This document shows positions 3,471 through 15,882 of a stretch of DNA of 64,000 bases, piece by piece. The first letter of the stretch is position 1. Every line of letters starts with the position of its first letter. Both the position numbers and the translations under genes were made by a program. The stretch comes from Candidatus Latescibacterota bacterium (lineage in GTDB: Bacteria; Latescibacterota; UBA2968), in contig OZ240241.1 in the NCBI GenBank assembly GCA_965198115.1, positions 3,360,001-3,424,000 on the forward strand, given 5' to 3'. The notes under the pieces are model-generated. The model was not told the origin of the DNA. It was given only the letters and a program-made list of their open reading frames with translations, and did not search any database.

Positions 3471-5024
3471 GAGCCTGTCGGGTTACACCCGGAAGCTCGT
3501 TGAGATTAAGTCCAGCTGAGTCTGTCAGCGACCGGTTACCTTCGTTTTTTCCTTGAGCCGAGTTCCTCTTCGGGATCAGGTAGCCAATGAGAGTCGATAG
3601 AGTTTCAGAAGGTTGTGTGTGAGACAGATCAGGTTCCATTCTCTGATGACTTTGTGGATTCGGCGGAATGAGAATCGGGTGAAGTTCCGAACGGATTTGA
3701 TCTGTCCAAACACGGGTTCGATGATCTGTTTTCTTTTCCAGTAGGTGCAGCGACCTTTCTGTGTGAGAAGCTTTCTCGCCATTTTGTCTTTCGTCGTTGC
3801 GCCCTTGGGGATCCGTCCCCTGGGGCAGGTCGCGATGGGCGTTCCATGTTTCTGTTTTGTCGTCGCCACATAGAGGTCGACGCCATCTGATTGAACCTGA
3901 TCGACCTGACTTTGGTTGAAGTATCCGGTGTCGGCAGTGAGGTGCTTGGGTGTCGTGCCGCCCATATTCGCTCTGATCTGGTTGACCATAGGTGTCATCT
4001 GGTTCTTGTCATCAGCTTCTTGGGTGACGTCGGCAGCAACGACAATCTGGGCCTTGTCATCCACAGCAGCTTGGCAGTTGTAGGCTTGAAGGAATTGGCC
4101 CCCTGAGACCATGATCCGTGAGTCGGGATCGGTGAAGTTCAGTTGTTCCTTTCAGTCGGGCTCTTTCGATGGAGGCTTGGGCTTACGTCCACGACCGCCG
4201 CGGCGCTCCCGGGCCTTTACCTTCTCTTCATACGCTGCCTGCTTCTCAGGAAACTCAGCCTCCGCTTCGGCTTCGATCTCGGCTATTGCGTCGCGGATTA
4301 CTTTGAGTCGAGTCTCCCGGTGCTGCAACTCCTCGGGCAACTCGTCGCCGCGGTTGTCCTTTCCGTAGAGTTCGTCTTCGGCCGCGTCAGTGGCTTCGGC
4401 CTCGGTCAAGAGTCTGCGCACTTCGGCCTCGATCTCGGCTTCTTTCTTCTTCATCCGGCCGTAGCTCATCGCTTTGTGTTTTGAGGCATTTGCTTTGACT
4501 TTCGTGCCATCCAACGCCACGTGTCCCAGCTTCACCAGACCTGCCTTCACGCAGAGACACAGCACTTGCCTGAACAGACCTGAGAGGGCATCCAGATGCC
4601 GTTGACGAAAGGTCGATATCGTGTCGTGATCAGGATGCTGATCCAGGCTGAGCACACGGAAAGCAACCGAGTCATAGGTCGCACGCTCGATCTTGCGGGA
4701 ACTCCTGATGCCTTCACAGTAACCATACAGCAGTAGGCTCACCATCATCCGGGGATCATACGGTGGCTGGCCACCTTGAGACCCATCGTAGGTCTCGTAG
4801 ATCGCGGACAAATCAAGTTGTCCGACGATATCCAGAATGAAGTAGGTCGGATGACCCTTGGGAAGCCAACTCCGGAGATCCGGAGGCAGCAACATCAACT
4901 GAGCCGGATTGTAGACACGAAACCGAGTAGAAGTGCTCAACGGAAACCTCCAATTCAGAGTCGGAACCTTGATCGCACTTCTACAATACGAAATCTTCCT
5001 CCGGCTGGGTACTCCGACAGGCTC
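3471..5024 (-). mobile_element. IS1182-family element
   Basis: Ends GAGCCTGTCGG and CCGACAGGCTC; CTAG on both sides (3467-3470, 5025-5028). Confidence 0.88.
3576..4940 (-). pseudogene. IS1182-family transposase interrupted by one in-frame TGA at 4152-4154
   Basis: LPPDL..WLP, PYDPRMM, SSRKIE, DGTKVKANAS, NFTDPDSRIM, ADTGY and R...IEPVFGQIK motifs. ORFs 4152..4940 and 3576..4112 are in the same frame. Confidence 0.85.
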
Positions 5025-5037
5025 CTAGCATCGACAT

Positions 5038-5889
5038 TTAAATTCTCTCGATACTTGCGCGTTTCGGAAGTGCGGCCTGGAACTCCGCCACACTCTTGAA
5101 CGGGTCCTTCAACGCGTGCGTGGAGTGAACGGGCTCCGCCTGACGATATCGGACGTGAACCGCCCGCCGGATCCGCTCCGTCTTCCGGATCGTCGCGCAG
5201 TGCCAGCTTGCGTTGTTGAACAGAAGACCGGATCCCGCTTTCGCGTGTACGTCGACCCGACCGATCCGGCGCGGGAACTCGCGACCGAACGCGTCCGGCC
5301 ACAGCGGCTTGTCAGGATCCACATAGCTCGTGCGCGCATCGTCGATTCGCAGAACCCCTTCGGTCGTTTTGGGCAGCGTTCGTTTCGTCTCGGCGCTCTC
5401 CGGAATCACGCTCGTGCAGTGCGTCGTCTCGTCCACGTCATCCAGATAGTAGATAATCTGAATCGACGGCGCGAAGTACAAGTTCCTGTCGGCGCCCTCT
5501 ACGGTGCCGCTGTCCTCCCGATGCCACTGTCGCGACAGGGCGAGCGGATCGCCCCCGTCAATATCCTCCGGCGGGTCGGCCAGACACGGTTCACGACGCA
5601 TAAAGGTCAACCCGGAGCACAGACAGCCCTCGCCCAGGATCGCCTTTACAAGCGGGATCGCCGACGGATGATGGATCACACCATCCAACGCTTGAGTCCG
5701 ATGCATCAGCCCGGGGGCGTCGTTACTCACCGCATCGAAGCCCGGACGAGGCCTCATCACCCACTCCTCCGGATGTGTGGCCCTGTCCGAGTCGATCCCG
5801 TCGTTCACCCGTGCGATTTCCTCGGGCGACAACGCCTCGTGCAGGACGACATAGCCGTTTTCCTTGAAATGATCGAGATATTCGTCCAT
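5038..5889 (-). CDS. PhyH-family Fe(II)/2-oxoglutarate enzyme, paralog of 84..935
   Basis: Same length and motifs (QWHRED, SWHCA) and colinear with the first copy. Confidence 0.85.
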   Translation of the reverse strand: MDEYLDHFKENGYVVLHEALSPEEIARVNDGIDSDRATHPEEWVMRPRPGFDAVSNDAPGLMHRTQALDGVIHHPSAIPLVKAILGEGCLCSGLTFMRREPCLADPPEDIDGGDPLALSRQWHREDSGTVEGADRNLYFAPSIQIIYYLDDVDETTHCTSVIPESAETKRTLPKTTEGVLRIDDARTSYVDPDKPLWPDAFGREFPRRIGRVDVHAKAGSGLLFNNASWHCATIRKTERIRRAVHVRYRQAEPVHSTHALKDPFKSVAEFQAALPKRASIERI

Positions 5890-6051
5890 CCTACCGCTCC
5901 TTGGCGTGCCTGAATATGCGGGAAGCTAACCACCAAGACTCTAAGACACCAAGATTTTCGGGGTGTGCCACTTCCCCAATTGAAGATTTTCGGGTGCCAC
6001 GCGTCCAGGTTTTTTCGTGTTTTTCGTGTATTTCGTGGTTAGGCTTTTCCT

Positions 6052-7032
6052 ATGAACCGTTACGAAACCCTCCGCCGACGCATCGCCGGTCCGATGGTCC
6101 CCCTCCCCATCCTCTACTGCGACAACCTCTCTGTCGACCACGCGGGCATCGCACGCTACGTCACCTGGCTGCTCGACGCGGGAATGACCAATACCTGCCT
6201 CACTTACGCCTACAGCCAGATCGGCTACGTCAGCGAAGAAGAGCCGATCGACATCACGCGAACGATCGCAGACGTCATCGGCGATCGGGCGGTTTTCATC
6301 GCCTGCTCGCACATCGACACGACCGAGAACACAGCTGCCCTCATCCAACAGATCAAGGAACTGGGTGCCCACGCCGTCTTCGCGATGCCCGAGCAGGATG
6401 GATGGCCAGCCGAGCAATACGGACCCCACCTCTCCACGATCGCCGAAACAGCTGACTTTCCGCTCCTGCTTGTGAACAACATCTCCCCAACCGATGCCGC
6501 GTCACCCATCTTCTCGATCGATGCGTACGAAGGCTTGCTCGAGCACGACGCCATCGTCGGTCTGAAGGAAGACTTCAACAACGTCCCCTATCGCCTGGAC
6601 CTCATCCGCGAATACGGCGAACGTCTCTGCATCATCGGCGGCGGTGTCCAGCGCAACTACCTCTTCTTCCACCACCATCCGCAGCAGGGCGAGTTGTTCG
6701 GCCAGTTCAGCCCGGCCACGGCGCACCGGTTCGTCGCGATGCTCGACGAAGAGCGGATGCGGGAGGCCATCGACTTCATAGCCCGTCGAGATCTTGCGTT
6801 GCGCGAAAGTCTTCTCGACCTCAACTGGCTCGCGCGGAATCAGGTCTATATGTATCAGATGGGATTCGCGGAGAGTTGGAAGCTTCGCCCCCCGCTCGAG
6901 TCTGCAACCGAGGCGCAAGTCTCGGAGGTCATTGCGGTGATGAAGGGGTATCCGGATGTGTTTACGGAGTTATGCGACTCACGTAGACACCATCCGGAGC
7001 GAGACGGAATCCGGTTCCCCGACGGCACGTAG
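6052..7032 (+). CDS. Dihydrodipicolinate synthase (DapA)-like class I aldolase family protein
   Basis: GPMVPLP...D..SVD..G start and VGLKED with the Schiff-base lysine. Confidence 0.75.
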   Translation: MNRYETLRRRIAGPMVPLPILYCDNLSVDHAGIARYVTWLLDAGMTNTCLTYAYSQIGYVSEEEPIDITRTIADVIGDRAVFIACSHIDTTENTAALIQQIKELGAHAVFAMPEQDGWPAEQYGPHLSTIAETADFPLLLVNNISPTDAASPIFSIDAYEGLLEHDAIVGLKEDFNNVPYRLDLIREYGERLCIIGGGVQRNYLFFHHHPQQGELFGQFSPATAHRFVAMLDEERMREAIDFIARRDLALRESLLDLNWLARNQVYMYQMGFAESWKLRPPLESATEAQVSEVIAVMKGYPDVFTELCDSRRHHPERDGIRFPDGT

Positions 7033-7297
7033 GGCTGAAGCCCGACGCTGGAAACACAAAGCCGGCTAAAGCCGGCTATTCCAACCCCGGAAATCGGGAG
7101 AGCTCGAACCCTGTCCGCACCAGCGATTCGCTCGTCTACCTACGTGGCTACGACTACTACAACATCAACTTCTGGCAGAAGCTCAGACGATTCCAATTCG
7201 GAATCGTCGACGACCCCTTCTGAGTACAGCAAGCGTTTCCTTCCACGGATTTATTTTTACCAGGGATTCGTCCCACTCGAACATTGCGTAGCGGCCC

Positions 7298-7336
7298 AAA
7301 ATAGACCCGGCCAAGAAGCGAACCGGGGTGACAATC
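7298..7336. repeat. Dispersed hairpin repeat, second copy at 15886..15925
   Basis: AAAATAGACCC(C)GGCCA.GAAGCG.ACCGGGGTGACAATC is present at both sites. Confidence 0.75.
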
Positions 7337-7481
7337 GTTGTTCGTTGGTGATGCGCGAAGCGAGAACTCCCAGTAAATCGACCTGCAGATCCTCCTCCTC
7401 CCTTAGCCGCTATCCTCGATCCCGATTCACCCACCGAACCCAACCTCCGTGTTCTCAGTCGTATGTTTTTCGTCTTTTTTT

Positions 7482-7563
7482 TGAACCGCGCTCCATCGGC
7501 CGGTGTCCTGACAGGTGAACGCCCAGAAAACGCGCGTGTAACCACCTCTCAGGAAGGAGCGTC
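7482..7563 (+). promoter_or_regulatory. Two tandem ECF-type promoter candidates
   Basis: TGAACC-N16-TGTC (7482-7507) and TGTAACC-N16-CGTC (7537-7563), upstream of the ECF sigma gene. Both match the general AAC/CGT ECF promoter pattern. Confidence 0.5.
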
Positions 7564-7643
7564 CAATGTAACCCACGACGCCGGTATCAAGTAGCGATGG
7601 GGTTTTTTGGTGACGTGACAAAAACGTGTAGGCTTCTTGAGTA

Positions 7644-7697
7644 CGTCGCACTTCGACGGAGTTCATCCTGAGCGCAGTCGAAGGGCTCAGTGTGACG
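7644..7697. repeat. Palindromic repeat of the CTTCGAC..GCTCAG..TGAC type; related copies at 8347..8369 and 8523..8557
   Basis: Shared CTTCGAC.N.GCTCAG core, with self-complementary arms in the 7644 and 8523 copies. Confidence 0.65.
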
Positions 7698-7757
7698 TAT
7701 CCATCCTCGGTGTAATCTGTGTGTTCTGTGGTTCCACCCCGTCTTTCAAGGACATCG

Positions 7758-8342
7758 ATGACCGACGAAGACCTCCTCACCGCCATCGCAAAGCAAGATG
7801 CTGATGCCTTCGGGGAGTTCTTCAACCGCTTCGAGCCTCAAGTGATCCGTCACCTGACGCGTATCGTCAGAGATCCGGCAACCGCCGACGATCTGACTCA
7901 AGACGTCTTTTTCCGGGTCTGGGCGCGCGCTGGGCAGTGGTCGGGGCGAGGCAGCGCGCGGAGTTGGCTGCTCACGATCGCCACAAATCTGGCCCTCAAC
8001 CACTTACGCACCGTTAAACGCCGCCGCGAGCAGCCTCTCGACCCTGGACCCGATCCTTACGCCGAAGGCGACGGGACCCACGCCCCCAGCTGGATGATCG
8101 ACGAAGCCGCCGTCGGCGCGGATGAGCAATACGAACAGACCGAGCGACGGCAGTTGCTCAACGGCCTCGTCGACGAGCTGCCCGAAGACAAGCGCGAGGT
8201 CTTACGCCTCGTCTACGACGCCGAAATGGATGTAAGGGATGTCGCCGACCACCTCGGCATCCCAGAAGGCACCGTAAAATCCCGAATGCACCACGCGCGA
8301 CGACGACTGGCCGATCGATGGCGCAACATCGAAAAACCCTGA
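7758..8342 (+). CDS. ECF (group 4 sigma-70) RNA polymerase sigma factor
   Basis: Region 2 motifs D.DAF.EFF.RF, ADDLTQDVFFRVW and SWLLTIATN; region 4 motif LP...R....L......DVA..LGIPEGTVKSRMHHAR. Confidence 0.93.
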   Translation: MTDEDLLTAIAKQDADAFGEFFNRFEPQVIRHLTRIVRDPATADDLTQDVFFRVWARAGQWSGRGSARSWLLTIATNLALNHLRTVKRRREQPLDPGPDPYAEGDGTHAPSWMIDEAAVGADEQYEQTERRQLLNGLVDELPEDKREVLRLVYDAEMDVRDVADHLGIPEGTVKSRMHHARRRLADRWRNIEKP

Positions 8343-8459
8343 ACCACCCTTCGACTACGCTCAGGACAAGCTCCGACACCAAGACACGAAGAAAACCGGA
8401 AGGAAAGGCATGAGCCCCCACTCAGCTTGCGGACATAACCCCCACCTTCTGGGTGAATC

Positions 8460-8510
8460 AGCCCACTTCAGTGGGCTTCGCTAAAGTTGCGTGGGACTTC
8501 AGTCCCACGC
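8460..8510. repeat. Pair of REP-like hairpins with TTCA loops; related hairpins at 7032..7077
   Basis: AGCCCAC-TTCA-GTGGGCT and GCGTGGGAC-TTCA-GTCCCACGC. Confidence 0.7.
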
Positions 8511-8575
8511 GGCTTGGCCGATTACCGACACTTCGACTCGCGCTCAGTGTGACGGTATGTCGGCCTTCCTGAACT

Positions 8576-11500
8576 ATGAACACTCTCAATGAGGTGCGAA
8601 TGACAATCACTCCTGCAACACCCTGGCACAACACCTCCTACCAGACCTTCATCTCGAGCACGCTGCCCGACCTGTTGGCCGATCGTGTCCCGCTCGATGG
8701 CTACAGCGTCAACCGGGTCGACGACTACAACGTCAACGTCGAACTGTCGCTCAGGACGAAGGGCGGCTCGATCGATCTGTCGTTCGCTGACGTGCCGGCC
8801 CCGGATGAACACGGCCTGTTCTTTGTGGACGGACAACAGGAGAAAAATGGCGGCTACCGCGTTGTCGTTCCGTATCCCGACGGGTTCGACCTCACAAAGG
8901 CGAACATCCTGTGCGTCGGCGAACAGTTGGCCGAATTCGTGGAGGCACGACTGGGGGATGCGCCGAACGATCTCGACTGGGATCAGAAGCTGGCGGAAGC
9001 CTGGCTGCCGGTCACCGGCTGGCTGGACACGTTCCTTCGGACCCAGCCCACGTCCCAATTTATCCAGAGCACGAACTGGCTGGACCGCACAACGCATCTT
9101 CGTCGCATCACGCTCGTCCCGATCGCCTTCGCCGAGGGTCCGTCGGAGAAGACGCACATCATACCCTCACTCCCCACGAGATCGCACTACCTGATGTCGC
9201 CCGAAGACGCGGCGGCGGGCTCGAAGCGTGGGTTGACCTGTCCCATCATCCAGCCCGAAGGCCCGAATATGGGTTGGATCTTCGAAGTCGCCCGGGGCGC
9301 GGAGATCAGGGACGGACGGCTCGTCCGCATCGAAGGGGCAGATCCCGCGGACGCGTCCCTCAACGTCGGCTGGAGCGGCTCGATGATTCCCTTCATCGAG
9401 CACACCGACTCCGCCCGCTTGCTAATGGGCGCGAATATGATGCGTCAGTGGATTGCTCCGAGGAACACGGCTGGTCTCCCGTCCGTCCAAACTGCGCAGA
9501 CCTATCCCGAAGATCTCGTCGACGCGCTCTCGAATCCACCCGGCCCGACACCCGAACCTGCGCTCGTCCAGACGGGAACGGAGCCGGATGACGCCGACTA
9601 CTGGGCGGGCTATAACCTGCTGACTGCCTTCACGATGTGGGACGGTGACACGTTCGAGGACGGCGTCGTCTTGTCCGAGTCCGCGGCGGCAAGGATGGCC
9701 TTCCCAGCCGACGTCGATCTCGGTGATAAGTTGAGCACGCGTCACGGCTTCAAGGGCGTCGTGTCCCGTATTCTACCCGACTCTGAAATGCCCGCGCTTC
9801 CCGACGGTACCGCGGTCGACACCATCATTTCGCCGACCAGTCTGATCTCGCGAGTCAACTTTGGTCAGCTGCGAGAAGCTGTGATGGGCCGCATCGCTCA
9901 CGCCGAAGGCCAGCCTGCGGTCGTGCCCGCCTACGAGGCACTGTCAATCGAAGACTTGAAGAGCCGGTTGAAAGGGGTGGGGCTGCCCGAGGATGGAATG
10001 GACCAACTGACACTCGGCGGAGAGGCGCTCCCGCACAGATCGACGGTGGGCTACGTCTACTGGGGGCGCCTCACGCATCTGTCACGGCACAAGCTGCGCG
10101 GTACGGACCACCTACTGGGGCCCGTGCTCTTCGGTGAGCGGCAATACTCAACGCTGAAAGGTCTCAAAGCCTACGCCACGATCGGCGATCTGCTACGACG
10201 CGCAACGGAAGCAGGCAACACCGTCCCGACACTGGACAACGTCACGGCCAAACTCAACGAGGCCGGCATTGTCCTCGAGCGGAATGGAGAGGAAGTCACG
10301 TTCTCGACAAACGGCACGAAAGGCTATACCCTCGCCTCGCCGGTCCCTCACCCCTGGCATCCCGAGGTCGAACTGAGGGCCGTCAGCGAAGGCGAAGGCG
10401 ATCTCTACGACGACGTCGTCGCGGCGGACGAGCGGGTGCGTCGCCTCGACGACAACGCGCCCGCCCCGCTGAAGTCGGCGGCGATCGAGCGTCTTGCCGC
10501 GGCCGTCGGCGACTATCTGGACGCATCCCTCACACCGAGCGATCTAGAAATCGACGCGCGTGTGCCCGATAGCGGCCGTGCCGTCATCGTCCCCGGTGCC
10601 GAGCTCGCACTCGATCAGATCGGTGTCCCTCGCGAAATGGCGTGGACCCTGTTCGGTGAAGACGTCGCGTCGGAGCTAGGCGAGGACGCCGTCGAGAAGC
10701 GAACGAAGGCTGCTACGTCACGTCTGGAGGAAATCGCCAACTCCGCCCATCTCCTGATCCACAAGGGCGTCCACATCACAGCCACGTCTGTGCTCGCTGC
10801 GCGGCCCGTCCTCATCGACGATCCCGTTATCCGCATCCATCCGATGCACTGCGCGCTTCTGGATGCCGACTTCGACGGCGATCAGGTCGCCGTCACGCGG
10901 CTCAAGTCAGAAGACGCCGTTCGCGAATGTGTGGAACGACTTTCCATCGCCGGCCACCTGCGTCACACACCCGACGCGCTTCGAATCCTCATCGGACGGC
11001 CGCACGGAATCAACTGGGGCTTGACCCGGCTTGCCAGAACGGCTGACGGTCGGAAGAAGATGACAGACATAGCCGGCGAAGCGATCGGTGAGGATTACGG
11101 TGGTCGCCGGTCTTATCTCGCCCTGCTCGAGCGCATCTTCGAGCGGGAAGGCGACAACGACGAGGGCTTGGCTAGAACGTTCGCCATCTACGACGGCCTG
11201 ATGCGACTCGGGCTCCAGGCGTGCAAGGAATCGGGCGTCTCCATCAACCCGTTCCTCGGTGCCTCTCTCGATCTGCCCGCGCCACCGCAATCCGACGATC
11301 TCGAATTGATGCATATATACAAGGAAGAACTCATCGCCGCGCTCAATCAGCATTCGGATCCCGATGACGGCGATGTCGGCACCTTCAACAGCTTCCGGCT
11401 CACAGGAACACGCGGCAGCGATGGGCAATACGTCCTCTACTTCGGCGCCATCGGCCACGTCGAGGGCGTCAACGTTCGTCACGGCTACATCAAAGGCCTC

Positions 11501-11740
11501 GACGTCGACGAAACCGCCGCCCTCAGCGCGAGAACAAGAGCCGCCATCGCCAGCGCCAACCGACAGATGGCCTCCTTCGACGATCGCCCGACCCTTCCCG
11601 GCCGCTCCTACGGCGTCATCGCAAGAGCGCGCAGAAGCGATCGCCCTGGCGTCGTCTTCGCACGGGCAGCCGCCAGAGGTGAAGTCGATCCCTTGGAGGA
11701 TGTTGATGCGCGGATCTTGTGTGGCTTGCCGGTGACATAG
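8576..11740 (+). CDS. Miniaturised single-chain RNA polymerase: fused RpoB-like and RpoC-like core (1054 aa)
   Basis: Beta motifs in order: SQF...TNWL..TTHLRRI, CPIIQPEGPNMG, IPFIEH.D..RLLMGANMMRQ, FEDGVVLSE, GDKLSTRHGFKGVV, MP.LPDGT.VD, SRVNFGQ, TVGYVY...L.HL. Then beta-prime motifs: LASPVPH.W, clamp helices, RV..SGRAVIVPG, HP..C...DADFDGDQ.AV, G.RGS..Q, GY.KGL and A.RGEVDPL. Confidence 0.9.
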   Translation: MNTLNEVRMTITPATPWHNTSYQTFISSTLPDLLADRVPLDGYSVNRVDDYNVNVELSLRTKGGSIDLSFADVPAPDEHGLFFVDGQQEKNGGYRVVVPYPDGFDLTKANILCVGEQLAEFVEARLGDAPNDLDWDQKLAEAWLPVTGWLDTFLRTQPTSQFIQSTNWLDRTTHLRRITLVPIAFAEGPSEKTHIIPSLPTRSHYLMSPEDAAAGSKRGLTCPIIQPEGPNMGWIFEVARGAEIRDGRLVRIEGADPADASLNVGWSGSMIPFIEHTDSARLLMGANMMRQWIAPRNTAGLPSVQTAQTYPEDLVDALSNPPGPTPEPALVQTGTEPDDADYWAGYNLLTAFTMWDGDTFEDGVVLSESAAARMAFPADVDLGDKLSTRHGFKGVVSRILPDSEMPALPDGTAVDTIISPTSLISRVNFGQLREAVMGRIAHAEGQPAVVPAYEALSIEDLKSRLKGVGLPEDGMDQLTLGGEALPHRSTVGYVYWGRLTHLSRHKLRGTDHLLGPVLFGERQYSTLKGLKAYATIGDLLRRATEAGNTVPTLDNVTAKLNEAGIVLERNGEEVTFSTNGTKGYTLASPVPHPWHPEVELRAVSEGEGDLYDDVVAADERVRRLDDNAPAPLKSAAIERLAAAVGDYLDASLTPSDLEIDARVPDSGRAVIVPGAELALDQIGVPREMAWTLFGEDVASELGEDAVEKRTKAATSRLEEIANSAHLLIHKGVHITATSVLAARPVLIDDPVIRIHPMHCALLDADFDGDQVAVTRLKSEDAVRECVERLSIAGHLRHTPDALRILIGRPHGINWGLTRLARTADGRKKMTDIAGEAIGEDYGGRRSYLALLERIFEREGDNDEGLARTFAIYDGLMRLGLQACKESGVSINPFLGASLDLPAPPQSDDLELMHIYKEELIAALNQHSDPDDGDVGTFNSFRLTGTRGSDGQYVLYFGAIGHVEGVNVRHGYIKGLDVDETAALSARTRAAIASANRQMASFDDRPTLPGRSYGVIARARRSDRPGVVFARAAARGEVDPLEDVDARILCGLPVT

Positions 11741-11825
11741 TCATCTGACCGACATACACGTCAAAGCCGCGGGTTGGTCGAGAGGACCGATCCGCGGCTT
11801 TTATTATCAGAAAGAAGTCGCCTGC

Positions 11826-11999
11826 TTGTCATTTCGACACGGTGTCACCCGCGACCAGGAAACACACCATCGCGATCTGCGGCGACCCGTGGAGAAATTC
11901 CTGCGCCTGGATGCAAGAGAGCCTGTCACGTTGTCCCTTCCCGCAGGGATCTCTCACCCGTGGCGAGGGCCGAGGCTCAAATCGGGTTCGAGATGACAA
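11826..11999. repeat. Long nested imperfect hairpin element
   Basis: Outer arms TTGTCATTTCGA and TCGAGATGACAA; inner arms GAGAAATTCCTGCG and CGCAGGGATCTCTC. Confidence 0.65.
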
Positions 12000-12518
12000 A
12001 CTAGATGCGCGATCTGGATCCCACACGTCGGTTCACCAAGCTGCTGGGGAAGACTACCCACTCGACGCCTCTTCGCCCGGTGCCCTCGGTGGTAGGTTTT
12101 CAGTGTATTCTGTGTGCTCTGTGGTTCCCTCTCTCACTGGGCAGGCTCACCCAAATCCCGCGGAGTCCTAGGCCAATGGAACTTCTCCTCCCCCGTCAGC
12201 AGCGCCCGATGCTCTTCGGATATGGTCTTCACGAAGTCGGGATCGGGATCGTACCGGTTCCACGCCTGGAACATCGTGGGCATATACCCACCCAGAATGA
12301 GAAGGCGTTCCCTGTTCGACCGGATGATGCCCGCCGAATGCATCAGGGATTCGTAGAAGAGTAGCGTCGAGCCCGCCGGAGCTTCGACCTGATGGATCAT
12401 AGAAGGATCTTCCATTGCCGCATCCACGATCGCATCACGTGAAACGTCGGTCCCCACCTTGTGCGTCCCTGCGATGACCGTCGTCCCGCCGTCATCCGGC
12501 CCTAGATCCGTCAGATTA

Positions 12519-13812
12519 GGGTTTGCCACGAAATAAGTGCTGCACTTTTCAAGGTAATGATCTTACGCTCGGAGTGTGGACGTCGAAACTCTCCGAACGA
12601 AGTATGAAGCCTTGGCTCCGGTGCTGACGGAACGCACGCGTCGTCTGTGGGCCGCCACGGAAGCCGAAGCGTTGGGTCACGGTGGGATCGCGATTGTGGC
12701 TCTGGCGACAGGAATGTCCAGAGAGCGGATCTTTCGTGGCATTCAGGAGTTGAGGTCGGACGAACCTTTGGACCCGGCTCGCATCCGGCGTCCAGGCGGC
12801 GGTCGTAAGCGGAAGGCCGACACGGACCCGACGCTGTGGCAGGACCTGAATGATCTGGTCGAGCCAACGACTGCGGGGTCGCCTGACGACAATCCTCTGA
12901 GATGGACATCGAAGAGCACTCGCAAACTGGCCGCCGAGTTGCAAGCGATGGGGCATTCGGTGAGCCCCAGGATCGTTGCCAATCTCCTGCACGAACACGA
13001 TTACACGCTGCAGGCGAATCGGAAGACAAGGGAGGGATCTGCACACCCGGATCGGGACGCTCAGTTCGTTTACCTCGATGATCGGATTAGCCAGCAGCAG
13101 CAGCAGGGCCTTCCCGTTATCTCGGTGGACACCAAGAAGAAAGAGTTGATCGGCGACTTCAAGAATCCTGGCCGAGAATGGCGACCCAAGGGAGACCCGG
13201 AGCGTGTGAAGGTACACGATTTCATAGTGCCTGCTCAGGGCAAGGCGATCCCTTATGGAGTGTATGATCTGAGCCGTGATGAAGGCTGGGTAAGTGTCGG
13301 TATCGATCACGACACGGCCAGCTTCGCCGTGAATGCGATCCGAAGTTGGTGGAAGAACATGGGACGGCCCGCCTACGGCACTTCGACGCATCTGCTAATC
13401 ACGGCGGACGCAGGCGGCAGCAACGGCGCCAAGACGCGGCTGTGGAAGTGGGAGCTGCAGCGCTTTGCGAATCGCACTGGCCTGACGATCACCGTATGCC
13501 ACTACCCTCCTGGCACTAGTAAGTGGAACAAGATCGAACATCGCCTGTTCTCCTTCATCGCTATGAACTGGCGAGGCAAGCCCCTGGTCAGCCTGGCTGC
13601 AACCGTGAATCTCATTGCCGGAACGACCACTCAAGCCGGTCTCCGAGTACGCTCCGAGATCGACAAGCGACCCTACCCTAACGGGGTCAAGGTGACCGAT
13701 GAACAGATGACCCAAATCGATCTCACTCCGCACGATTTCCACGGCGACTGGAACTACACGATCCGGCCAATGGCTCAACATTGAGATCGACCGTTTATTT
13801 ATTCGCGAACCC
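12519..13812 (+). mobile_element. ISAzo13-family IS
   Basis: Imperfect ends GGGTTTGC..AAATAA and TTATTTATTCGCGAACCC; 3-bp duplication TTA (12516-12518, 13813-13815). Confidence 0.88.
12576..13784 (+). CDS. ISAzo13-family transposase
   Basis: ISVDTKKKELIG, ADAGGSNG, PPGTSKWNKIEHRLFS and FHGDWNYTI motifs. Confidence 0.95.
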   Translation: MDVETLRTKYEALAPVLTERTRRLWAATEAEALGHGGIAIVALATGMSRERIFRGIQELRSDEPLDPARIRRPGGGRKRKADTDPTLWQDLNDLVEPTTAGSPDDNPLRWTSKSTRKLAAELQAMGHSVSPRIVANLLHEHDYTLQANRKTREGSAHPDRDAQFVYLDDRISQQQQQGLPVISVDTKKKELIGDFKNPGREWRPKGDPERVKVHDFIVPAQGKAIPYGVYDLSRDEGWVSVGIDHDTASFAVNAIRSWWKNMGRPAYGTSTHLLITADAGGSNGAKTRLWKWELQRFANRTGLTITVCHYPPGTSKWNKIEHRLFSFIAMNWRGKPLVSLAATVNLIAGTTTQAGLRVRSEIDKRPYPNGVKVTDEQMTQIDLTPHDFHGDWNYTIRPMAQH

Positions 13813-14462
13813 TTAGTCAGCGCCTTGACAAACGAGAAGTGGTAGAGACCCCGTTCCATATGACTGTATGCCGGGTTGATTCCACGATGGAAGCCAAACC
13901 GCTCCCCACCATCGGCCACTGGCCGGCGTATGTGGGCATCCGATTGCTGGAGCCGGGCCGGGCCACCGATGATTTCCTCTGCCATCCCGACAATGAACGG
14001 GCTCGTCAGGTAATCGAAAAAACACTGTGCCAGGTGCGGCAGGTTATCGATCCGGAAGAACTCCTCCGTCGTACTCGTGTTGAAGCAGTTCGGCCCGGGC
14101 ATTTCTCCGTTCCGGCGAAACTGATCCTCTATCTCATACAGCGTCTCCTTCAGCACATCGATCTCGTCCTGCGACAACACCTGTTCGACAATGACGTACC
14201 CGTAGATCTCGATGTGCAATCGCTGAGCGGGCGTCAGCGCGGGAAACGACTTTGCTTTCGGTTCTGCGGTCATTGATTCCGATCCCTTGGTTCCGTGGAC
14301 GTCACAGTGATGCCCATATGATAGGCCGGGCAGCGGCCAAGCCATCGCTCCTCTCACTGCAGTTCCGTAGGAATTCACACTACGATGGTGGTGCGAATGC
14401 GTCGGCCACCGAGACGAGGGACTCAAGCCCACCGCTTGGCCGCAAAAGTCGGGTCGAAAAAT

Positions 14463-15882
14463 GGCTCTATCCGGGTTTCTCAACGGTGAAACTATAGAAT
14501 GACAAGGTCATAGATCGTTCCCTACGCTTGGTTGTGTGTGTAGGACAATCAAAGCGAAGGGGGTGCGACCTATGACCGGGAGCAGATTACTATCGAAACT
14601 GCTGAGATTCAAGGGGTTCCGTGTTGTCAGCTGGTGGTTTGAGGGGAGAAGCTGTTTCGTCATCGCCGTAAAGCCACATAAGAATGGTTGTTGTTGTCCG
14701 GAGTGCGGCCGTCGAGGTAAAATCGTCCGCACAATGCCCCATCCGCGTCGGTGGCGTGACATTCCGGTGTGCGGGTGGAGGGTCTGGCTTCTCTACCATC
14801 CTCGGGAGATTCGGTGTCCTACCCACGGTCGTGTGGTCGAGGAGATTCCGTGGGCGGAGCGGTTCTCTCGGGTGACGTATCGCTTCGAGTATGCCATGCT
14901 GCGCTACTGCCAGACCATGACGCAGAAGGCGGCGTCCGAGTTACTGCGCATCTCTGCCTCGACGCTGTCGGATCTCCGTCACCGATCCATCACGCGGCTT
15001 CGTGAAGGTCATCGTATCCGAGGGCTCAAAACCATCGGGATCGACGAGATCTCCTACGCCAAGCGTCACAGGTACGCCACGCTCGTTTACGATCTGGACC
15101 GCTCCTGCGTGGTGTGGGTTGGCCGCGGCAGGGCGCGTAAAACGATCGATCGGTTCTTCACAGAGGCTCTCAGTCCCTACCGGAGATCCAAGATCGAGTG
15201 GGCCTGCTGCGACATGAGCGAAGCTTACATCGGAGCCATCCAGGAACACTGTCCGAATGCCAAGCTGGTCCTCGATCGCTTTCACATCGTCAAGGCTCTC
15301 AATGCCGCCGTTGACGAGGTCCGTAAGGACCAGTGGCGTAAAGCTGCCCCGGATGAGCGCAAAGCCATGAAGGGCCTCCGATGGCTCCTCTACCGGCACT
15401 CAGCGACACGCTCCAGAGGGGATACTCGGACACTCAAAGCACTGGAGAAGGCGAACTACCGAATCTATAGAGCCTGGAGACTCAAGGACGAGTTCGAGCA
15501 GTTCTGGGAATACAAAGCGCCCTGGGCTGCCGAACGCTTCCTGAAATGCTGGACGACGTCCGCACTCAGAAGTCGACGTGAACCCCTGCGAAAGTTCGTC
15601 AGGACCCTGCGACAGCACTTCTTCGGCGTCCTCGCATTCGTGAACACGCGTCTTACCAACGCCATCGCCGAAGGCCTCAACCGAATCGTCCAAATCGTCA
15701 AGAACCGAGCCAGCGGATTCCGCACACTCGACGCATTCAACGATATGATCTTCCTTACCGTCGGAGACATAAACATCCCTGAGCAGATTCCGAAGAGGTT
15801 CCGCACACGCTAACCGCGCCCCCATGCCAGGAACCACGGCACCTTCACCCACTTCATCTCGTTGAGAGATCCGGATATAGCC
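14463..15882 (+). mobile_element. ISL3-family IS, copy 2 (1420 bp)
   Basis: Near-identical inverted copy of 2027..3446; 8-bp duplication CGAAAAAT (14455-14462, 15883-15890). Confidence 0.93.
14536..15813 (+). CDS. ISL3-family transposase
   Basis: Differs from copy 1 at about 4 amino acids. Confidence 0.93.
   Translation: MCRTIKAKGVRPMTGSRLLSKLLRFKGFRVVSWWFEGRSCFVIAVKPHKNGCCCPECGRRGKIVRTMPHPRRWRDIPVCGWRVWLLYHPREIRCPTHGRVVEEIPWAERFSRVTYRFEYAMLRYCQTMTQKAASELLRISASTLSDLRHRSITRLREGHRIRGLKTIGIDEISYAKRHRYATLVYDLDRSCVVWVGRGRARKTIDRFFTEALSPYRRSKIEWACCDMSEAYIGAIQEHCPNAKLVLDRFHIVKALNAAVDEVRKDQWRKAAPDERKAMKGLRWLLYRHSATRSRGDTRTLKALEKANYRIYRAWRLKDEFEQFWEYKAPWAAERFLKCWTTSALRSRREPLRKFVRTLRQHFFGVLAFVNTRLTNAIAEGLNRIVQIVKNRASGFRTLDAFNDMIFLTVGDINIPEQIPKRFRTR

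Follow-up and report, generated by a model that had tools for sequence, protein, structure and literature searches.

An ECF-type sigma gene paired with a single-chain mini RNA polymerase in Latescibacterota and other phyla: a candidate private holoenzyme

The 64,000-nucleotide (nt) stretch of the Candidatus Latescibacterota bacterium contig OZ240241.1 analysed here (positions 3,360,001 to 3,424,000, forward strand; hereafter the window) carries a two-gene module: a gene for an extracytoplasmic function (ECF)-type sigma factor and, downstream on the same strand, a gene for a single polypeptide that joins shortened forms of the RNA polymerase (RNAP) subunits beta and beta-prime, which we call the mini polymerase. 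We propose that the two products form an autoregulated private holoenzyme; this reading is drawn from sequence, with the binding of sigma to the mini polymerase inferred, and we rate it equally likely to prove right or wrong. The gene pair, its anatomy, its conservation, its co-occurrence and co-phylogeny, the promoter motif and a terminator-like hairpin were all observed directly in the sequences and their analysis. The holoenzyme is favored by the linkage of the two genes, their coupling through overlapping stop and start codons, their strict co-occurrence, the survival of the clamp coiled coil through extensive pruning, the consistent change of the coiled-coil surface, and the invariant residues P110 and W112 of the sigma linker.

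Anatomy of the mini polymerase

The mini polymerase gene occupies positions 8600..11740 of the plus strand and encodes 1046 amino acids (aa). Its open reading frame (ORF) runs from 8576 (8576-11740, 1054 aa), and residue numbers given here follow that longer frame; the likely start is the ATG at 8600, which is preceded by a Shine-Dalgarno sequence (GAGGTG) and fits the N terminus of the family. Approximately residues 1-555 derive from beta and 556-1054 from beta-prime. Within this one chain, the Pfam domains RNA_pol_Rpb2_6 (PF00562) and RNA_pol_Rpb1_2 (PF00623) were matched at 122 bits (cut-off 23.4) and 49.5 bits (cut-off 25.3), respectively, and a profile search of the PDB returned beta with an E of 6e-71 and beta-prime with an E of 1e-44. 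A family profile of 118 mini-polymerase members was aligned with hhalign to the host's own beta and beta-prime, which are encoded elsewhere by rpoB and rpoC (G000:C1:1962731-1970713; 1281 and 1364 aa). Residues 41-551 were co-linear with host beta 361-1278 (Prob 100%, E 2e-46) and residues 607-1001 with host beta-prime 261-772 (Prob 99.85%, E 1e-30). The AlphaFold2 model had a predicted local distance difference test (pLDDT) score of 89.5 and a predicted template modelling (pTM) score of 0.89, and the best PDB matches of this model by Foldseek were bacterial RNAP beta and beta-prime chains.

Pruning has removed approximately 60% of the parent beta and beta-prime, and the coiled coil was kept. 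Lost from the mini polymerase are the first ∼360 residues of beta (the lobes), the flap, and the cysteines of the zinc (Zn) site, and the rudder segment that follows the coiled coil is deleted in the alignment to host beta-prime. The flap deletion site is at 9653..9757 (plus strand), where FED (the Mg-II ligands E813 and D814 of Escherichia coli beta) is followed after 20 residues by GDKLSTRHGFKG (K1065, K1073). The distance from FED (residues 360-362) to GDK (383-385) is thus 20 residues, as compared with approximately 240 in host beta (roughly 797-1036, the flap). The bridge helix (11504..11581, plus strand; residues 977-1002) is a 26-residue helix in the AlphaFold2 model. Only ∼50 residues follow it; these align to the C-terminal region of beta-prime and nothing aligns to the trigger loop, so this element is absent.

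The catalytic DFDGD motif (10868..10882, plus strand; residues 765-769; D460, D462, and D464 of E. coli beta-prime) is intact in the window protein, and the three positions are Asp in 109, 116, and 114 of the 118 family sequences, respectively. On the beta side, K1065 is Lys in 95/118 and Arg in the other 23/118, whereas K1073 is kept in 113/118, R1106 in 118/118, and R678 in 114/118; the Mg-II ligands E813 and D814 are kept in 112/118 and 117/118. The SGR motif of switch-2 and the SGARG/bridge-helix region are also retained. Catalytic residues are conserved in 95-100% of the 118 sequences, which come from several phyla and share ∼40% overall identity. The protein belongs to the two-barrel RNAPs, having both a beta-prime-type barrel with NADFDGD and a beta-type barrel with its basic and Mg-II-binding residues. 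We conclude that the mini polymerase is likely an enzyme with intact active-site residues rather than a relic, its activity being predicted from sequence and model.

Five full-length, sigma-linked homologues differ at the first catalytic Asp. It is Asn (NFDGDQ) in loci L060, L064, and L070 (Poribacteria) and L071 (Chloroflexota), and Tyr (YFDGDQ) in L019. These may be catalytically impaired lineages, judging from the substitutions.

Linkage of the sigma and mini polymerase genes

The sigma gene is located at 7758..8342 (plus strand; 194 aa), with its likely ATG at 7758 in an ORF that is open from a GTG at 7719. This ORF (7719-8342, plus strand) matched Pfam Sigma70_r2 (PF04542) at 64 bits and Sigma70_r4_2 (PF08281) at 51 bits, and it scored 105.9 bits against NCBIfam TIGR02937 sigma70-ECF (cut-off 42.9). 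With regions 2 and 4 only and this family score, the protein is an ECF (group 4) sigma-70 factor. A first-pass annotation made from the letters of the window had placed an ECF sigma gene 233 bp upstream of the polymerase gene on the same strand, with no anti-sigma gene after it, and both statements were borne out: the domain matches identify the sigma factor, its stop codon lies 233 bp from the ORF start at 8576 (257 nt from the ATG at 8600), and a domain scan of the ORFs following sigma and of the module's neighbors in the window (PhyH, a DHDPS-like gene, and transposases) found no anti-sigma domain. A cognate anti-sigma gene next to an ECF sigma gene is common but not universal; here the mini polymerase is the only conserved neighbor.

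The sigma orthologues form a distinct group. They scored 190-246 bits against the window sigma, versus ≤46 bits for other ECF sigmas at the same loci, and a sigma profile gave 275-293 bits for orthologues and ≤114 bits for non-orthologues. The linker carries P110 and W112, which do not vary across this family.

Relatives of the mini polymerase were collected in a scan of one genome per species, in which 152 were found and 80 loci were kept. A same-strand orthologous sigma gene (>100 bits) lies upstream of the polymerase gene in 76/78 loci having upstream sequence. The loci span at least seven phyla, among them Latescibacterota, Poribacteria, Chloroflexota, and Planctomycetota, and many members are sponge symbionts. 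In 66 loci the sigma gene overlaps the polymerase gene or lies within 290 nt of it, and in 10 loci one extra gene, for an ABC exporter or a 396-aa protein of unknown kind, stands between them. When starts were refined for 69 pairs, 30 overlapped by 4 or 1 nt and 9 were separated by 0-30 nt. The sigma and polymerase genes are the only gene clusters common to all lineages.

The loci with an intervening gene (L045, L047, L050, L051, L053, L057, L058, L062, L063, and L079, at ∼4100-6000 in each) belong to one Latescibacterota clade, the gene encoding the ABC exporter in 8 and the 396-aa protein in 2. In this clade a 345-aa DksA/TraR zinc-finger protein is encoded two genes upstream, and a BlaI-type repressor and a BlaR1-TonB_C protein are encoded downstream on the same strand.

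Of the 168 genomes examined in the window's phylum, 65 carried the polymerase, 62 the sigma factor, and 61 both. The five mismatches comprise a frameshifted sigma gene, the genome of locus L021, an N-terminally truncated polymerase, and two cases at contig ends. At L018 (genome G140), the sigma gene is read as two ORFs, probably because of a frameshift. L021 lies in a complete genome (G170) and has an intact polymerase with DFDGD and no promoter motif; the best sigma there scored 86 bits and no orthologue was present. Locus L067 (4107-5171) holds a second, sigma-less copy of the polymerase gene beside an IS200-like transposase, and the sigma orthologue of that genome is on another contig, where the beginning of a further polymerase gene comes after it. 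L021 and L067 are the two loci that fall outside the 76/78.

Sigma and polymerase trees agreed closely: the patristic correlation was r = 0.93, and none of 999 permutations exceeded 0.09. Common descent would by itself also yield such a value. Conserved adjacency and congruent trees were two of the checks that the first-pass annotation had put forward for its proposed pairing, and the 76/78 loci and the tree correlation answer both in its favor. The pairing of sigma and polymerase is not due to chance.

Promoter, regulon, and sigma docking

An ECF-type promoter, TGAACCGCGCTCCATCGGCCGGTGTC, is located at 7482..7507 (plus strand) upstream of the window's sigma gene, with TGAAC at -35, 15 nt, and GGTGTC at -10, and a T-run precedes it. 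The motif TGAAC-N15-GGTGTC (N14 in two cases) occurs with ≤1 mismatch upstream of sigma in 75/75 regions, where the -10 element is GGTGTC or GGCGTC, 23-30 nt usually lie between the end of the motif and the sigma start, and the spacer sequence varies by clade. Within 1.1 Mb of related loci, 72/74 exact matches were at the module, and L067 has an exact copy (5146-5171) directly before its sigma-less polymerase gene. The window promoter is the sole exact match within the 64 kb and the highest-scoring site under a position weight matrix (PWM) in the 8.4-Mb genome (25.2 bits versus a control maximum of 20.2). ECF promoters have AAC at -35, a group-specific -10 element, and a spacer of 14-17 bp, and their autoregulatory sites routinely serve to infer ECF specificity (PMC5758882). 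The module promoter has each of these features and is, on this basis, a predicted autoregulatory site.

Exact-motif and PWM scans of the window's own genome revealed no regulon beyond the sigma operons: the motif scan gave 18 matches versus ∼12 expected, and at the second-best PWM site the only long ORFs overlap the site itself. Scans of five other genomes gave 4-11 motif matches, versus 4-12 for a reversed control, and no targets outside the operon. As far as motif searches can recognise it, the regulon is the operon alone.

These promoter data also suit a different explanation, namely that sigma works only with the host core as a self-amplifying activator of one operon, of which the mini polymerase is a sigma-independent effector, acting without sigma as YonO may. 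Sigma region 2.2 is canonical (consensus DLVQEVFLRVW), as is the promoter (-35 AAC, -10 GTC, a 14-15 nt spacer within the known range), so the host core can explain the use of this promoter. A regulon confined to the operon fits the same explanation, as do the sigma-less second polymerase copy of L067 behind the same promoter and the G170 polymerase that has no sigma orthologue. Strict co-occurrence, 30/69 stop/start overlaps, and tight co-phylogeny, on the other hand, commonly mark proteins that interact physically; even so, a regulator with a single target would co-occur with it too. A motif that is invariant in the sigma linker throughout the family also speaks against this explanation. Weighing this evidence together with that of the coiled coil given below, we consider an exclusive role with the host core unlikely.

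The clamp coiled coil is the main docking site of sigma region 2, and the flap tip binds sigma region 4. The mini polymerase retains the coiled coil with an altered surface (10394..10531, plus strand): residues 607-652 align to host beta-prime 261-306, and the AlphaFold2 model has a helical hairpin at 609-623 and 630-651. The coiled-coil residues N276, R278, R281, and E289 are kept in the family. Others have changed: where E. coli has R270, R271, N274, and R275, the window protein has D, D, A, and A. Among the 118 sequences R275 is replaced by Ala (78), Val (37), or Thr (3), E295 by Ala (80) or Thr (35), and A302 by Arg (102), the window protein keeping Ala at this last position. The host beta-prime, unlike the mini-polymerase family, retains the E. 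coli residues at R275, E295, and A302. Substitutions at these three positions of E. coli beta-prime led to deficient holoenzyme formation (PMC8321222).

The first-pass annotation had noted a retained coiled coil, basic clamp residues replaced by Asp or Ala, and a missing flap, and the alignments, the modelled hairpin, and the 20-residue FED-GDK interval agree with it on all three. Its further suggestion, that sigma binds this surface with changed specificity, fared less evenly: the family-wide replacement of R275, E295, and A302 fits the idea, but the canonical region 2.2 and promoter fit the host core at least as well.

Retention of the coiled coil while ∼60% of beta and beta-prime was pruned argues for a sigma partner and against an exclusive role of sigma with the host core. 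The replacement of residues needed for sigma-70 binding, together with the absence of a flap for region 4, argues in the opposite direction.

The coupled position of the polymerase gene raises another alternative, already offered by the first-pass annotation as a polymerase-mimic anti-sigma factor: the mini polymerase could be a sigma sink in the anti-sigma slot that buffers or gates the positive feedback, with catalysis being secondary or lost. The module does resemble ECF sigma/anti-sigma operons in its autoregulated promoter, the sigma gene coming first, a coupled second gene, strict co-occurrence, and co-evolution. With no other anti-sigma gene present, the mini polymerase gene stands where one would be expected in an autoregulated ECF operon, and it is translationally coupled in the same way. 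A sigma-docking element is retained, and the full-length, sigma-linked homologues with Asn or Tyr at the first catalytic Asp (5/76), including a Poribacteria subclade, keep the idea alive. The module departs from such operons in its second gene, whose product is homologous to polymerases, has its catalytic residues conserved, and contains no known anti-sigma domain. The strong conservation of the Asp triad, the beta Lys/Arg residues, the Mg-II ligands, and the bridge helix disfavors a mimic, 1046 aa would be a costly sigma holder, and the three residues used for sigma-70 docking in E. coli are replaced. We regard a sigma sink as improbable.

Several results weigh against the proposed holoenzyme. 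The 5/76 full-length homologues lacking the first catalytic Asp and the L021 polymerase without a sigma orthologue are joined by the canonical sigma region 2.2, by a promoter whose geometry and spacer a normal holoenzyme could read, and by the lack of targets outside the operon in the genomes scanned. The anchor of sigma region 4, the flap, is missing. Conservation of the coiled coil (0.545) is slightly below the mean for the protein (0.634), and its retention need not be sigma-specific, because in cellular polymerases the coiled coil has further roles, such as NusG binding. Sigma E49D showed no covariation with coiled-coil position 302, which was non-Arg in one of the three D49 cases. Finally, a search of longer proteins at E ≤ 1e-30 turned up no natural fusion of sigma and polymerase, a result that counts as weak evidence; the two long open frames that had looked like such fusions proved to be overlapping frames.

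Sigma likely switches on the operon through the TGAAC-N15-GGTGTC promoter of the module. In the proposed scheme, the host core with this sigma would carry out the initial round of expression, a step proposed because the promoter geometry is canonical for ECF factors, and sigma and the mini polymerase would then be made together. The latter would be catalytically active despite the missing trigger loop, by analogy with the phage-encoded YonO. Region 2 of sigma would dock on the re-surfaced coiled coil and put the -10 element at the cleft, and the holoenzyme would be private in that host sigmas would not use the mini polymerase.

Related polymerases and the setting of the window copy

The module combines a two-barrel RNAP and an ECF sigma factor; to call it a new kind of holoenzyme is a bold claim, and a predicted one. 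It shares with the canonical RpoB/RpoC core and its ECF holoenzyme homology to both subunits (hhalign Prob 99.85-100%), the catalytic residues, bridge helix, switch-2 SGR, and clamp coiled coil, and a bona fide ECF sigma partner with an AAC/GTC promoter. It differs in being one chain of 1046 aa, versus 1281 + 1364 aa in the host, without the lobes, flap, rudder, trigger loop, and Zn-binding cysteines, and in that its gene is an accessory one (65/168 genomes of the phylum) located away from rpoBC. Scores against the equivalog models were far below their cut-offs (TIGR02013, 136 versus 801 bits; TIGR02386, 59 versus 963 bits). Full-length beta::beta-prime fusions (NCBIfam NF007172/PRK09603), carried for example by Helicobacter, have the same subunit order in one polypeptide, but they cover ∼2,890 profile positions and are the cell's sole polymerase and a complete one. 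The mini polymerase scored 126 bits against NF007172 (cut-off 5372), has ∼40% of the length, and coexists with rpoB and rpoC.

Phage non-virion RNAPs, such as those of AR9 and phiKZ, similarly combine a bacterial-type polymerase homologue with a dedicated specificity factor beside the host enzyme, but they are viral and have several subunits, whereas the mini polymerase is one cellular chain with a standard ECF sigma. The AR9 and phiKZ specificity subunits are not known to be members of the ECF sigma family by sequence. A closer parallel is YonO of the Bacillus subtilis prophage SPbeta, described as a single-chain, trigger-loop-less, active RNAP (PMC5467207). Both are single polypeptides of ∼100 kDa without a trigger loop that coexist with the host polymerase, and YonO also has no flap-type (SBHM) insert (PMC7824862). 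They differ in that the homology of YonO to multisubunit RNAPs is called 'very distant' and its promoter factor unknown (PMC5467207), whereas the mini polymerase, far closer to the bacterial subunits than YonO is by that description, is readily aligned to them (beta E 6e-71) and its family is chromosomal and tied to a sigma gene.

Searches for earlier records gave little. PADLOC returned 0 families for the mini polymerase and only weak HTH-type matches for sigma (E ∼0.003), IMG/VR contained no mini-polymerase relative, plasmid and phage collections gave ordinary rpoB/rpoC matches only, and source databases label family members 'hypothetical protein'. The literature searched, the scope of which did not extend to supplements of bioRxiv preprints, contained no account of a fused mini polymerase linked to a sigma gene, and the main text and one supplementary file of the ECF reclassification paper make no mention of Rpb2, Latescibacteria, or Poribacteria. 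The ESM Atlas holds other single-protein clusters with Rpb2_6 and Rpb1_2, of 1200-1800 aa, one with an inorganic-pyrophosphatase-like name; because of these clusters, fused beta/beta-prime proteins may be more varied than this family.

To our knowledge, all known sigma-dependent transcription uses a five-subunit core of ∼400 kDa. On the broadest reading, at least seven phyla would possess a second, orthogonal sigma-dependent machine, a 115-kDa chain with a coiled coil that only its own sigma uses, forming a self-amplifying circuit and the smallest sigma-using cellular-type RNAP known; we offer this picture tentatively, thinking it a little likelier to fail than to hold. If it is true, a one-chain enzyme of ∼115 kDa without flap and trigger loop defines the minimal parts for sigma-directed promoter recognition, synthetic biology gains a natural orthogonal polymerase/sigma pair, and little-studied phyla such as Latescibacterota, Poribacteria, Chloroflexota, and Planctomycetota have a second transcription system. 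Should one of the alternatives prove right instead, the family would still be widespread, derived from a polymerase, and undescribed, with a regulator of its own.

The window copy of the module has an unusual layout. The leader from promoter to sigma start (7508..7757, plus strand) is 250 nt long and contains a short dispersed repeat resembling repetitive extragenic palindromes (REP-like), and the intergenic spacer (8343..8599, plus strand) contains REP-like palindromic repeats ahead of the Shine-Dalgarno sequence; in homologues an overlap, or a gap of at most 30 nt, between the two genes is the rule. The repeats in the window copy have widened both the leader and the spacer. The leader repeat (∼7650-7700) recurs at 18 further sites of the 8.4-Mb genome, and the spacer repeats (8343-8560) recur at 42; the repeats are palindromic and ∼35-65 nt long. 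The two-gene unit ends at a terminator-like hairpin (11763..11809, plus strand) with a 17-bp stem followed by UUUUAUUAU, a U-run; a 90-nt stretch containing it folds at -38.1 kcal/mol (z -5.1), and 0/200 shuffles fold as well. No conserved motif was found downstream of the polymerase gene, and no Rfam family was matched in 6500-12600.

The module lies between insertion sequences, and the same genome encodes another mini polymerase, a paralogue of 42% identity accompanied by a sigma gene of its own, in a compact arrangement at C1:1427408-1431231. The window copy could be decaying or silenced, with this paralogue being the working one. Its end branch is long (0.98 versus a median of 0.049), its 250-nt leader and 257-nt gap with REP-like repeats compare with 23-30 nt and mostly -4 to 30 nt in homologues, and it is flanked by transposases on either side and adjoins a split PhyH gene. 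Nevertheless, neither ORF is broken, no family-invariant or catalytic residue is missing, the promoter matches the motif exactly and ranks first in the genome, the ATG at 8600 has its Shine-Dalgarno sequence, and full-length close relatives (66-83% identity) occur elsewhere. Decay of this copy is, in our judgment, very improbable.

A PhyH gene flanks both the window module and the modules of one Latescibacterota clade; tblastn detected no similarity between these at E ≤ 1e-5, and synteny is therefore not claimed. The PhyH-family dioxygenase gene of the window (minus strand, 12134-14483) is split by an ISAZ013-type insertion sequence, with the C-terminal piece at 12134-12529 (profile 133-211), the N-terminal piece within 13395-14483 (profile 4-112), and the ISAZ013-type transposase at 12576-13784 (plus strand). 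On the other side of the module, a DUF772/DDE_Tnp_1 transposase is encoded in two ORFs (3576-4112 and 4152-4940, minus strand). An ISL3-family transposase gene is present beyond the split PhyH gene, at 14536-15813 (plus strand).

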